This document shows, piece by piece, positions 9,671-14,479 of a DNA stretch of 29,250 bases. This DNA is from Candidatus Sumerlaeota bacterium (GTDB lineage: Bacteria; Sumerlaeota; Sumerlaeia; MWCT01; JAGHBZ01): NCBI GenBank assembly GCA_021160705.1, contig JAGHBZ010000077.1:1-29250 (forward strand), given 5' to 3'. Within the stretch, counting starts at the first letter, position 1. The number at the start of each line of letters is the position of its first letter. The notes below the pieces were generated by a model, which was given only the letters and a program-made list of their open reading frames with translations, was not told where the DNA came from and made no database searches. The position numbers and the translations under genes are program-made.

Positions 9671-9766
9671 TACAGGTCGCTCCTACGGAGCTCGGATGTC
9701 TCTACTTGCTGCCATTAACCCCAGCGCTGACGCACTGGGCTACATACAGGTCGTTCCTTCAGAACT
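9671..9766. repeat. REP-like palindromic element cluster between convergent genes
   Basis: TACAGGTCGCTCCTACGGAGCT (9671-9692) and TACAGGTCGTTCCTTCAGAACT (9745-9766) are 18/22 identical and flank the hairpin CCCAGCGC-TGAC-GCACTGGG (9720-9739). Confidence 0.7.
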
Positions 9767-10083: not shown

Positions 10084-10359
10084 CTACTTGGAGTTAATGT
10101 TTATCCATTTTAAAATCTTTTCCTTATTAGACAAATCTCCGATAATACGCTGAGAGTGTGGAGGGGTTTCTTTAACGAGTGTAGGTGTAGCAAGTATTCT
10201 TTCCTGTTCAGCCAGTTCAGGTCGTTCAGTCACATTGATGATATTTAACTTACATACGCCCTTGAGTTCCTCCTCACATATTTGACGAAGCACCGCAATT
10301 GAGCGGTGAGATTGGGTCGTGTTACCGCTGATAAACAATTATAAAAAAATCTTATTCAT
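10084..10359 (-). pseudogene. kaiB: KaiB-family protein with an in-frame TAA at codon 7 (or a shortened TTG-start form, 10338-10084)
   Basis: 'ICEEEL...L.II.V.E.PELAEQERILATPTLVK..P...RIIGDLS..EKIL' is the KaiB signature. Upstream reads ATG AAT AAG ATT TTT TTA TAA TTG TTT ATC (MNKIFL*LFISG). Confidence 0.75.
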
Positions 10360-11271: not shown

Positions 11272-12339
11272 TTAACCCGGATGCTGACGTGCAAGGGGAT
11301 GATTGAAATGAAACGCATAATTTCTGATTAGTTCGTCCGAACGGTATACAAAGTCTTTTCCCCCAGGGTTAACCACCGAATGGGGCGACAGGAGCGTAGC
11401 TTCTTTATAAGTTTGCTTAAGACCAAGTTGACTTATTACTTTATTGCCGGGAAGGAGGTTATCAGCGTGCCATAGTTTATCGGAGTATTTTTGCTTTATT
11501 TCAAGGGTATAAAAACTGTAAGGGGGAAGGGGACCTAGACATTGAAACTCTAGCTTCTCACCAAATCTGGTATTGAGCCATTCTACTTTATTATAGAACT
11601 CGTGTTTTTCTGATTTATTGATTAAGAGTGCGGCATTCATCACTATCCCGGGATTCATCGGCTCAAGCATTTTAAATTCACGACATATATCCTTAAAGAC
11701 ATTCTGTAATCTGGATACGAGTTCTTCTACTTTGCGTTTCAACACTTGCTGGGTCAAAGAATTCAGAGCAATTCGCTCGGTTAACGTTATCTTTCTATGA
11801 TTAGTTAACAGTTTTTCTTTCAATTCTTTTATTTCTTTTTGTTCGGCGACCTGTCGGAGTATGGCTTTGAAATCACGCCACGTGACAATAACGTCAATTT
11901 CTATAAGGTTCTTAATTTCTTTCAGTATCTCTTTCAGTAACCAGTATCCTTCCTGTAAGATATGTCTGACCTCAGTTTCGTTCTCGGCAAAGGTGCCAAT
12001 ATTTACCGGGATGATTGTATACTTTAGATTCATAATTTTCTCAATAACGTCTCGATGCTTTCTCTGTAGACGCTCAAGCAGGTTTCGTGGTAGATTCGTG
12101 ATGTCAATCATCCGAGAATCACTCACAAGGGCAGAGATGTCTTTATAAGGAATTGTATATATCCAGGTGGGTGTTTTAGTTTCTGCTATAGTTGTTGAGG
12201 GAATTGTTGTGGTAATACTGGCGAAGTCAGTCACCTGTGGCTTGTGTTCACGCCACTCTGAGAGCGAGACAGGAGTAAAAATCTGAAGTACATTACCGGA
12301 GTTTACAATGCCGTAGATATATTTGCCAAGTTTATTCAT
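11272..12339 (-). CDS. GvpF/GvpL-family protein with a C-terminal J-domain-like tail
   Basis: 'GKYIYGIV', 'IYTIPYKDISALVSDS', 'HRDVIEKIM...TIIPVNIGT', 'EIDVIVTW', 'GPLPPYSF', then 'LKQTYKEATLLSPHSVVNPG'. Confidence 0.8.
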   Translation of the reverse strand: MNKLGKYIYGIVNSGNVLQIFTPVSLSEWREHKPQVTDFASITTTIPSTTIAETKTPTWIYTIPYKDISALVSDSRMIDITNLPRNLLERLQRKHRDVIEKIMNLKYTIIPVNIGTFAENETEVRHILQEGYWLLKEILKEIKNLIEIDVIVTWRDFKAILRQVAEQKEIKELKEKLLTNHRKITLTERIALNSLTQQVLKRKVEELVSRLQNVFKDICREFKMLEPMNPGIVMNAALLINKSEKHEFYNKVEWLNTRFGEKLEFQCLGPLPPYSFYTLEIKQKYSDKLWHADNLLPGNKVISQLGLKQTYKEATLLSPHSVVNPGGKDFVYRSDELIRNYAFHFNHPLARQHPG

Positions 12340-12363
12340 TTGCTATTTATTTTTATTAGATGT

Positions 12364-12549
12364 CTAAAGCCTATTTATTCCGAGTTCTATTTTTTGTAAC
12401 CGCCTTTTAAGAATATTTCTAATTATGGATGGGCTCGCTTTTTGGTGTAGGAGTGAGATTTTGTCTTTCTGTAGTAGATATAATTCTAAATGAGCCCGCG
12501 AATGAATTTGGGGTATAGAACGTAATTTTATGCCGTGTATAGTCTTAAT
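12364..12549 (-). CDS. Unannotated 61-codon ORF with ATT start (or a start-codon-mutated gene)
   Basis: SD AAGGAGGT (12563-12557 region) lies 7 nt before ATT at 12549. The frame IKTIHGIKLRSIPQIHSRAHLELYLLQKDKISLLHQKASPSIIRNILKRRLQKIELGINRL ends at TAG 12364, 24 nt before the gvpF-like ATG. No in-frame ATG/GTG/TTG back to the upstream stop. Confidence 0.55.
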   Translation of the reverse strand: MKTIHGIKLRSIPQIHSRAHLELYLLQKDKISLLHQKASPSIIRNILKRRLQKIELGINRL

Positions 12550-12589
12550 TGGGAAAACCTCCTTTTCTATGGAAGCCTTTACAGAAAGT

Positions 12590-12619
12590 GGGAGATGGTC
12601 TGCGTACAGACCGTCTCCC
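12590..12619 (-). terminator. Strong hairpin (terminator, attenuator or processing stem)
   Basis: GGGAGACGGTCTG-TACG-CAGACCATCTCCC, a 13-bp stem with one mismatch, followed on the minus strand by ACTTTCT (only a weak U-tract). Confidence 0.55.
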
Positions 12620-12621
12620 CT

Positions 12622-12776
12622 GTGCCGCCGAGAGGTGTGATAGGTCAGAAGAGAGCCTCAACCTTCAGTGGCAAAACCGAGGGTTCACGCTCTCGACCCG
12701 GTATGTAGAAAGGTTATTCTCCAGAGCTGTGACTCACTTTTCAGGTTGGGTTTCGTGTACCCTCTCTGACGGCAAC
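12622..12776 (-). ncRNA. Rod-shaped structured RNA candidate with 6S (SsrS)-like architecture
   Basis: Nested pairings found by eye: GTTGCCGTC-A-GAGAGG/CCTCTC-GGCGGC-AC; a central bubble of 12 and 23 nt; CAACCT-GAAA-AGTG/CACT-GA-AGGTTG; TCAC-A-GCTCT/AGAGC-GTGA. The G-U wobble favours the minus strand. The 3' CGGCGGCAC resembles the 3' conserved end of E. coli 6S (CGGCGGCAUC). Confidence 0.5.
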
Positions 12777-12930
12777 TCTATTTGAAATTCAGAAGGAAAT
12801 GAGTACCTGTGTGAAGTAAGAAAGCCAAAAGAAGCATATTTATACTTTACTCATTCCCTTTACGCCGTTATTCACGGTTATCAAAGAGCATTATGTGTAT
12901 AATTTTTTTAATACTAATAAGTGAATAGTA

Positions 12931-12946
12931 TGCAATACACGTGCCA
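12931..12946 (-). promoter_or_regulatory. sigma54 (RpoN) -24/-12 promoter
   Basis: Minus strand TGGCACGTGTATTGCA matches the consensus TGGCACG-N4-TTGC(A/T) with exact GG-N10-GC spacing; it lies about 160 bp downstream of an NtrC-family gene. Confidence 0.85.
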
Positions 12947-13108
12947 GAGAGTATGCGAACCGAGAAGATATTTGAAGAGCCGATGATAAGCTTATGGGGA
13001 CTCTTATTGAGGGGTATGGTAAAAGATAAGAGGATGCATAAGAGAAGGATTGCTTAAGGAGTCAGTAAGTAGAGTGAGACAGAGGTGGGACAGAAGTGGA
13101 CGGAATTG

Positions 13109-14479
13109 TCACAATCCCACACTTTTTAATCTTCTGTAGAGAGCTTTTCTGTGTATGCCCAGGAGTTCAGCAGCTTTTGTCTTATTTCCCCCGGCTTCTG
13201 CAAGTGCCTTTACAATCAGCTCTCTTTCAATCCTCCTGGTTATATCATTCAATGAAAGTCTTTGCTCTAAACTCTTTAAGCCACCACTACTCTCCGGTGA
13301 GGTAATTATGTGTGGGGGTAAATGGCAGGGTTTAATATATTCAGAATTTGTCAGAAGTACCGCTCTTCTTATGACATTTTTCAACTCCCGCACATTACCC
13401 GGCCAGGAGTAATTAAGAAAGGCTCTCATTACCTCCGGAGAGAATCCTTTTATCTTTTTATTAAATTCTTGATTTGCTTTATCCAGGATATATTGAGCTA
13501 GTAGAGGAATATCATCTTTTCTTTCGCGAAGGGCTGGAAGTGTGATATAGAATTCGTTCAGACGATAAAAAAGGTCGTGTCTGAATTTACCAGTTCTAAC
13601 TTCTTCATTGAGATTAACGTTGGTAGCGGCGATAATTCTGACATCTACTTCTATAAGTTTCTTCCCACCAAGATGTTGAATGCATTTATTTTCAAGTACA
13701 CGGAGGAGTTTAGCCTGTGCGGGTAGGGAGAGATTGGTTATTTCATCCAGGAATAATGTGCCGCCGTTTGCGCGTTCAAACTCGCCTTCTTTTTTAGTAT
13801 CTGCCCCGGTAAACGCCCCTTTTTCGTAGCCGAAGAGTTCGCTTTCAATTAGTGTTTCAGGGATAGCGCCGCAGTTAACAGCAACAAAAGGTTTGTTTTT
13901 CCGGTGGCTTTCCTGGTGAATCATCTGAGCGATTAATTCTTTGCCGGTGCCACTTTCACCCTCCAAAATAATTGTCATATTGGTAGGGGCAATAATCTTG
14001 ACCTGCTTGATGACCTGTTTTATCTCCGGGCTGTCGCCTATCAGTTCTTCGACCTCGGTCTTTTCATTCAATCTTTTTCTGAGGGTCTCTACTTCTTTGC
14101 TCAGGTGGCGTGTGTGAAGAGCCTTCCTGATTACCAGCACTATTTCTTCGCTATCAAATGGTTTGGTAATGTAATCATAGGCGCCTAACTTCATTGCCTG
14201 AACCGCACTTTTCACGTCCCCGTATGCGGTAAGCATAATGACCAGGAGGTCTTTATCAATTTTTTTCATCTCCTCTAAGACAGTGATGCCATCTTTTCCG
14301 GGTAGACGCATATCCAATAGGACCAGTGCGGGCGGATTCTCTTTAACTTCCTTTAGAGCGCGTATTCCATCACCCACTGCGGTGACGTCGAACCCTTCAT
14401 CCTTTAATACATTAGAGAGGATGAACCGCATATCTTTGTTATCGTCAACTATTAAAATCCTTTCCATTTTCTTCTCCAA
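13109..14479 (-). CDS. sigma54-dependent response regulator (NtrC/AtoC family; REC-AAA+-Fis HTH)
   Basis: Receiver (ILIVDD, LLDMRLP, KP), Walker [15 protein letters not shown] loop, 'GTLFLDEI', 'WPGNVREL', HTH '[19 protein letters not shown]'. Confidence 0.95.

Follow-up and report, generated by a model that had tools for sequence, protein, structure and literature searches.

Activation by σ54 is usually seen as an on/off decision made at initiation. In the window analysed here (the whole stretch of 29,250 nucleotides), a folded RNA of ~190 bases was found in the untranslated leader between a σ54 promoter and a small gene of a gas-vesicle cluster. This locus raises the question of what an RNA in such a position is, and of whether it acts on its own messenger, acts elsewhere in the cell or does nothing at all. 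A sequence-only reading had offered two options, namely a 6S RNA under σ54 control or a novel cis-regulatory leader.

Results

Gene context and the σ54 promoter

All genes between 10084 and 26886 of the window lie on the minus strand, to which all window coordinates below refer unless the plus strand is named. In minus-strand order, a PAS histidine kinase (15838-14567) comes first, followed by an NtrC-type σ54 activator (14479-13109); after 769 nt of intergenic DNA come a GvpL/F protein whose tail is J-like (gvpL-J, 12339-11272), a second GvpL/F protein (GvpF, 11236-10424) and then kaiB. The source genome, a MAG of 486 contigs that is 82% complete, encodes the σ54 gene rpoN. The Acido-Lenti-1 RNA model (RF01687) also gave a match in the window, at 9720-9766 on the plus strand, in the gap between a 523-aa gene and kaiB (39.2 bits against a cut-off of 37).

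The sole perfect -24/-12 match in the window, TGGCAC-N5-TTGCA, was located at 12931-12946. This σ54 promoter lies directly after the activator gene, as do the promoters of σ54-dependent sRNAs encoded beside their activators. We infer that the locus is transcribed from it, with a start probably near 12921; the folded RNA lies ~145 nt downstream of the promoter. A single syntenic relative, L041, was found by way of the activator protein (85% identical), and in it the promoter is conserved as TGGCAT-N5-TTGCA.

Upstream of the promoter, an enhancer-like block (TGTGACAAT-TCCGTCCAC...TGTCCC...TGTCTCAC, 13074-13113) begins within the activator stop codon and is identical to L041 at 15-17 of 20 positions in sliding windows. 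Its motifs (GTGACA..TCCGTCCAC..TGTCCC..TGTCyCAC) are common to the window, to L041 and to a further locus, L131 (3348-3398), where they stand upstream of the σ54 promoter of gvpA. Relatives of the activator with 67% identity are encoded directly before gvpA in L131, with a σ54 promoter and a leader of ~45 nt, and the family of the activator seems to regulate gas vesicles. In Serratia sp. ATCC 39006, gvpA1 is driven by σ54 and the NtrC-type regulator GvrA (PMC4982088), a system that resembles the present locus in its NtrC-type activator and its σ54 promoter for gas-vesicle genes. In place of the short leader of L131, the window has a structured leader of ~370 nt, and gvpA (PF00741) was not found in the 82%-complete genome by a search whose control was also silent.

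The first part of the leader contains a conserved block, AAAAUUAU...AUAAUGCUCUUUGA (also given as AAAAUUAU...GCUCUUUGA; 12881-12906), that is identical to L041 at 22 of 26 positions; the AU-rich 5′ domain as a whole is 43% identical, at or below the neutral level defined below. The segment AUAAUGCUCUUUGA (12881-12894) resembles a mini-ORF (MLFD...). A leader peptide MLFD/E was nevertheless rejected, since its AUG is AAG in L048, a strain of the L041 species; the constraint on AUAAUGCUCUUUGA therefore acts on RNA or DNA and not on a peptide. Also rejected was a helix P0 pairing 12889-12881 with 12785-12775, the predicted probability of which was 0.5-0.7 in the window versus 0.08 in L041. Four independent assemblies of the sister species (L042, L043, L044 and L047) end 86 nt past the activator stop codon, where the intergenic region begins, and these breaks may reflect strain heterogeneity at that point.

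Predicted fold of the leader RNA

Between 12776 and 12622, the minus strand is predicted to form a rod closed by a 13-bp helix, P1, the strands of which are AGAGTTGCCGT and ATCACACCTCTCGGCGGCAC. Within P1, P1a (UGCCGUC/GGCGGCA) pairs 12774-12768 with 12629-12623, and P1b (GAGAGG/CCUCUC) pairs 12766-12761 with 12635-12630 and is kept in L041 with a one-base shift. When the region 12585-12780 was folded, the minimum free energy was -78.9 kcal/mol compared with -58.5 ± 4.8 kcal/mol for shuffled sequences (z -4.2), and none of 200 shuffles did as well; the rod alone gave z -3.3. The GC content is 51-60% in the folded region and 34-45% in its flanks. The plus strand folds nearly equally well (z -3.6), and the RNA was assigned to the minus strand because of gene orientation and context and because its G.U pairs would be A.C on the other strand.

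On the 5′ side of the rod, an internal-loop motif, GUACACGAAACCC (GUAUACAAUACCC in L041; 12748-12760), is identical at 10 of 13 positions and is mostly unpaired in both predicted folds. It is followed by a 48-nt segment specific to the window (12700-12747), which carries two small hairpins inside 12735-12706 and has no counterpart in L041. The inner hairpin (12642-12699, z -3.7) comprises helices P2 to P4 (GAGAGC/GCUCUC, AACC/GGUU and UCGGU/ACUGA), and the 3′ strands of P2 and P1 together form a pyrimidine-rich strand, CUCUCUUC...AUCACACCUCUCGGCGGCAC (12622-12655), that is conserved with L041. Immediately beyond the rod lies a terminator-like hairpin, GGGGAGACGGUCUG-UACG-CAGACCAUCUCCC, with the tail ACUUUCUG (12590-12620; z -5.3 in the window and -7.2 in L041). 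Its stem (12620-12590) has 12 pairs, arranged as 6 + 6 around a C.A mismatch, and its tail holds four U in eight nucleotides in both species; the U run is short and offset.

The sequence-only reading had described three nested helices and a central bubble over 155 nt. Such a fold is indeed present on the minus strand, but its bubble varies in size: in the window, ~59 nt of the 5′ side (12758-12700) fall outside the P1 and inner-hairpin helices, versus ~12 nt in L041. The 5′ strand GUCAGAGAG, which had been placed at 12769-12761, lies one base off, at 12770-12762. An alternative pairing of this strand with 12653-12644, put forward as a switch, does exist over 9 bp; its role as a switch found no support. 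When the alternative was forced, the energy rose from -78.9 to -67.7 kcal/mol (a cost of +11.2 kcal/mol). In the unforced full leader, the P1 pairs had probabilities of 0.83-1.0, and only 3-5 of the nine alternative pairs can still form in L041. No conserved mutually exclusive pairing was seen in the window and L041.

Conservation of the fold

As a neutral baseline, the four-fold sites of the activator gene were compared between the window and L041 and were found to be 41% identical, which is near saturation. The rod interior, at 43%, stands at this level, and the spacer after the hairpin (22-33 nt) is 24% identical. The 3′ strand of the rod (12656-12621), by comparison, is 83% identical and includes AUCACACCUCUCGGCGGCAC, an unbroken run of 20 identical positions at 12641-12622. 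On the 5′ side, AGAGUUGCCGU (12769-12779), which contains the 5′ strand of P1a, is identical at 11 of 11 positions. Both strands of P1 are invariant, and the promoter, the hairpin stems, the Shine-Dalgarno (SD) sequence and the AUU start codon are conserved as well. A rod and a hairpin are likewise predicted for the corresponding stretch of L041 (z -5.7; rod alone z -4.4), and the folds of ORF controls gave z near 0.

The hairpin differs between the two species by one compensatory change (U-A to A-U) and two half-compensatory ones (C.A to C-G and G-C to G.U, window to L041). In the rod, GAGA/UCUC and CGGU/ACUG are kept in both species, and P3 reads AACC/GGUU in the window and GAUG/CAUC in L041; this compensation in P3 depends on a structure-guided register, as the alignment of the interior is ambiguous. 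Covariation drawn from two species carries no statistical weight, and an invariant P1 says nothing on pairing. The rod also differs in length, with the extra 48 nt on its 5′ side in the window and an apical extension of ~55 nt in L041. In one divergent strain of the window's species, C12724 is changed to U, which turns a G-C pair into G.U.

Searches for further copies covered several collections. Contigs reached by way of the same proteins add no further orthologue of the rod: L133 is identical to the window, and L048 and L049, two strains from the L041 species, extend over other parts of the leader only. L050 proved to be a false cluster member. A DNA search of 60 relatives with 12560-12960 returned nothing real. 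A single-sequence covariance model of the RNA (R1), which detects L041 at 27 bits, found only the window itself and one match with E=0.09 among 100 relatives. The exact 20-mer ATCACACCTCTCGGCGGCAC was absent from two collections, one of genome contigs and one of metagenome contigs, and no other copy of the RNA was found in the source genome. Searched with Rfam, neither the window region nor its L041 counterpart gave a match, whether the limit was the gathering score or E<=10. The data indicate that the fold is a real, selected RNA structure restricted to one lineage, and its only known carriers are two uncultured species from vents or sediments. It belongs to no described family, and its general kind is already known.

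The small gene downstream

After the hairpin comes an SD sequence, AAGGAGGU, with an AUU start codon (together 12547-12564), both of which are conserved in L041. The hairpin had been described as 13 bp long and ~25 nt before the SD; it is present with the 12 pairs given above, it ends 27 nt before GGAGG (12562-12558, within an SD at 12564-12557), and this SD serves an ORF whose AUU lies 8 nt further. The distance from hairpin to SD and AUU is thus about 27-40 nt. The ORF has 61 codons (12364-12549) and a dN/dS of 0.32 against L041, in which it has 66 codons and keeps its frame through a 3-nt indel; the other frames show dN/dS >1 and contain stops. Judged by these substitutions, it is a real gene under purifying selection. 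Its spacer is too short for a promoter and is not conserved, and the ORF would therefore be read from the σ54 transcript, with the RNA as a part of its 5′ UTR.

The encoded protein matched no Pfam or NCBIfam family; its relatives are longer, unnamed proteins (~110-125 aa) encoded in gas-vesicle clusters (in G008 and at 80 metagenome loci), of which it is a shortened form. None of these 80 loci has an R1 match at E<=10, and a strict σ54 promoter was present within 700 nt upstream at 0 of the 56 metagenome loci where the motif could be placed. Within the ORF, 24 nt at 12478-12501, UCGCGGGCUCAUUUAGAAUUAUAU (encoding SRAHLELY), are identical in L041 with zero synonymous changes, and an extra constraint at the nucleotide level is possible there. 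In both species the SD is predicted to pair (p 0.8-1.0), but with partners that are not homologous (12554-12579 in the window and 9926-9976 in L041): the partner is an upstream GGCUUCC in the window versus a downstream segment within the ORF in L041. An anti-SD role for AUCACACCUCUC would be speculation.

In L041, gvpL-J (10147-10205) is cut down to ~19 codons and then meets a stop, and GvpF is 43% identical between the two species, compared with 85% for the activator. No relative of GvpL-J with >42% identity was found, and the relatives that were found belong to gvp clusters of the ordinary kind. What remains of gvp seems to be in decay and the cluster to be under reduction in this lineage. 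The long, structured leader is thus new in a lineage with a shrinking gas-vesicle cluster.

Discussion

We consider it somewhat better than even, at a probability of roughly 55%, that the RNA is a cis-acting leader element that acts after initiation on its own messenger. A promoter stands before it and the SD of a real gene after it, without a further promoter in between, which places it in the 5′ UTR of an ORF that is itself conserved. Identity in the closing helix and in the hairpin far exceeds the neutral level; the cis-regulatory option of the sequence-only reading thus agrees with what was found. In the mechanism that we propose, a leader of ~370 nt would be transcribed from the σ54 promoter, driven by the adjacent pair of PAS kinase and NtrC-type activator. 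Its core would be the rod closed by the invariant P1 of 13-14 bp, followed by the stable hairpin with its short, offset U run and, ~27-40 nt on, by the SD and AUU of the small gas-vesicle-cluster gene, with the remnant gvpL/F genes and kaiB behind. The element may set the share of the σ54 transcript that continues into the coding part to be translated. As to its mode of action, we infer that the hairpin would most likely cause pausing or partial termination, or that the rod would be processed or bound by a protein.

Several points speak against a cis-acting leader. The comparison rests on two species and an invariant P1, and with the downstream genes looking as if in decay, the RNA itself could be the selected product. 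No conserved antiterminator or anti-SD alternative was found in the two species, and the U run is weak (4 of 8), with a census of the genome showing such tails to be equally common inside ORFs and after them. Compared with known riboswitch and attenuator leaders, the RNA is alike in its 5′ UTR position and in its order, in which a domain with a conserved P1 precedes a terminator-like hairpin and an SD. Unlike them, it has no conserved competing structure and matches no known aptamer, and its domain has room for 48 inserted nucleotides and for an apical extension of 55 nt.

It is possible, if unlikely, that the RNA is instead a trans-acting, σ54-dependent sRNA of ~330 nt that ends at the hairpin, with the downstream genes as relics reached by read-through. 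CrcZ/CbrB, NrsZ/NtrC, GlmY/GlrR and Qrr/LuxO are σ54-dependent sRNAs encoded beside their activator genes. The order seen here, with a kinase and an NtrC-type activator, a -24/-12 promoter, a structured RNA and a stable hairpin, fits this known pattern. Moreover, the elements of the RNA are better conserved than the downstream genes, as seen in GvpF at 43% against the activator at 85% and in gvpL-J, which is deleted in L041. An sRNA would, however, be expected to end at its hairpin, and the U run of this hairpin is weak and offset in both species. Unlike in CrcZ, NrsZ, GlmY and Qrr, a conserved SD and an ORF under purifying selection follow at once, within 27-40 nt and with no promoter of their own, and there is no similarity to these sRNAs in sequence or by model. 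Neither a known target or seed nor another copy in the genome speaks for action in trans.

A bolder proposal, which we regard as rather doubtful, is that the reduced gas-vesicle operon has given rise to an undescribed class of regulatory RNA. This could be a leader in which the invariant P1 and the internal loop form a core that responds to a ligand, a protein or temperature, or a σ54-dependent RNA that is now the main product of the locus while its coding genes decay.

Also improbable is the view that the RNA is a functionless, GC-rich leftover of the reduced gas-vesicle cluster that folds by chance. Most gvp genes have been lost in the lineage, the rod interior evolves at the neutral rate, and just two species carry the RNA, all of which would suit a leftover. 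Against a neutral identity of 41%, however, stand the invariant runs of 20/20 and 11/11 and the compensatory change, and both orthologues fold far better than shuffled sequences, as the sequence-only reading had asked of a genuine structure. A relic of a gvp pseudogene was rejected, as tblastn with 291 peptides from five gvp loci matched the small ORF only and not the rod.

Quite improbable, in our judgement, is a ligand-sensing riboswitch, for example one for a nucleotide second messenger, whose aptamer would be the P1-closed domain with its conserved internal loop. P1 is invariant, a terminator-like hairpin and an SD lie downstream, and the P1/P2 internal loop is flanked on each side by conserved nucleotides (GUAYACRAWACCC and CC.AUCAC). 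Among the riboswitch models of Rfam, however, none matched the window or L041, with only noise at E<=10; this includes the models for c-di-GMP, which had been thought a tempting ligand. The region between P1 and P2 also differs by the 48-nt insertion, and the two species, the only ones known to carry the RNA, share no mutually exclusive pairing.

The 6S option fared worst. Like 6S RNA (RF00013), the RNA is of similar length (a rod of ~155 nt) and in its predicted fold in the window has a closing helix and a one-sided internal loop. Unlike 6S RNA, it matches no model, lies in a 5′ UTR under a σ54 promoter and is without the usual ssrS neighbours. RF00013, whose gathering score is 46.4 bits, gave no match at E<=10 in 12200-13150 of the window or in 9369-10210 of L041. 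As to an ssrS gene elsewhere, the model finds none in the source genome, which is 82% complete, but it does find a canonical 6S RNA at a locus of its own in each of five relatives from the same family or order (52.9-92.2 bits). Since RF00013 recognises 6S in these relatives, the RNA of the window is not the 6S RNA of the lineage. That it is a 6S RNA made by the σ54 holoenzyme to sequester the σ70 holoenzyme is thus barely credible, given also a loop of 59 versus ~12 nt and a position within an mRNA leader.

The value of the cis-acting leader that we favour is limited by its occurrence in two uncultured vent or sediment species and by its place before a decaying gene cluster. As a test object it is compact, with promoter, leader and ORF contained in ~700 bp. 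If functional, it would constitute a second checkpoint, at the level of RNA, that follows activation by σ54.
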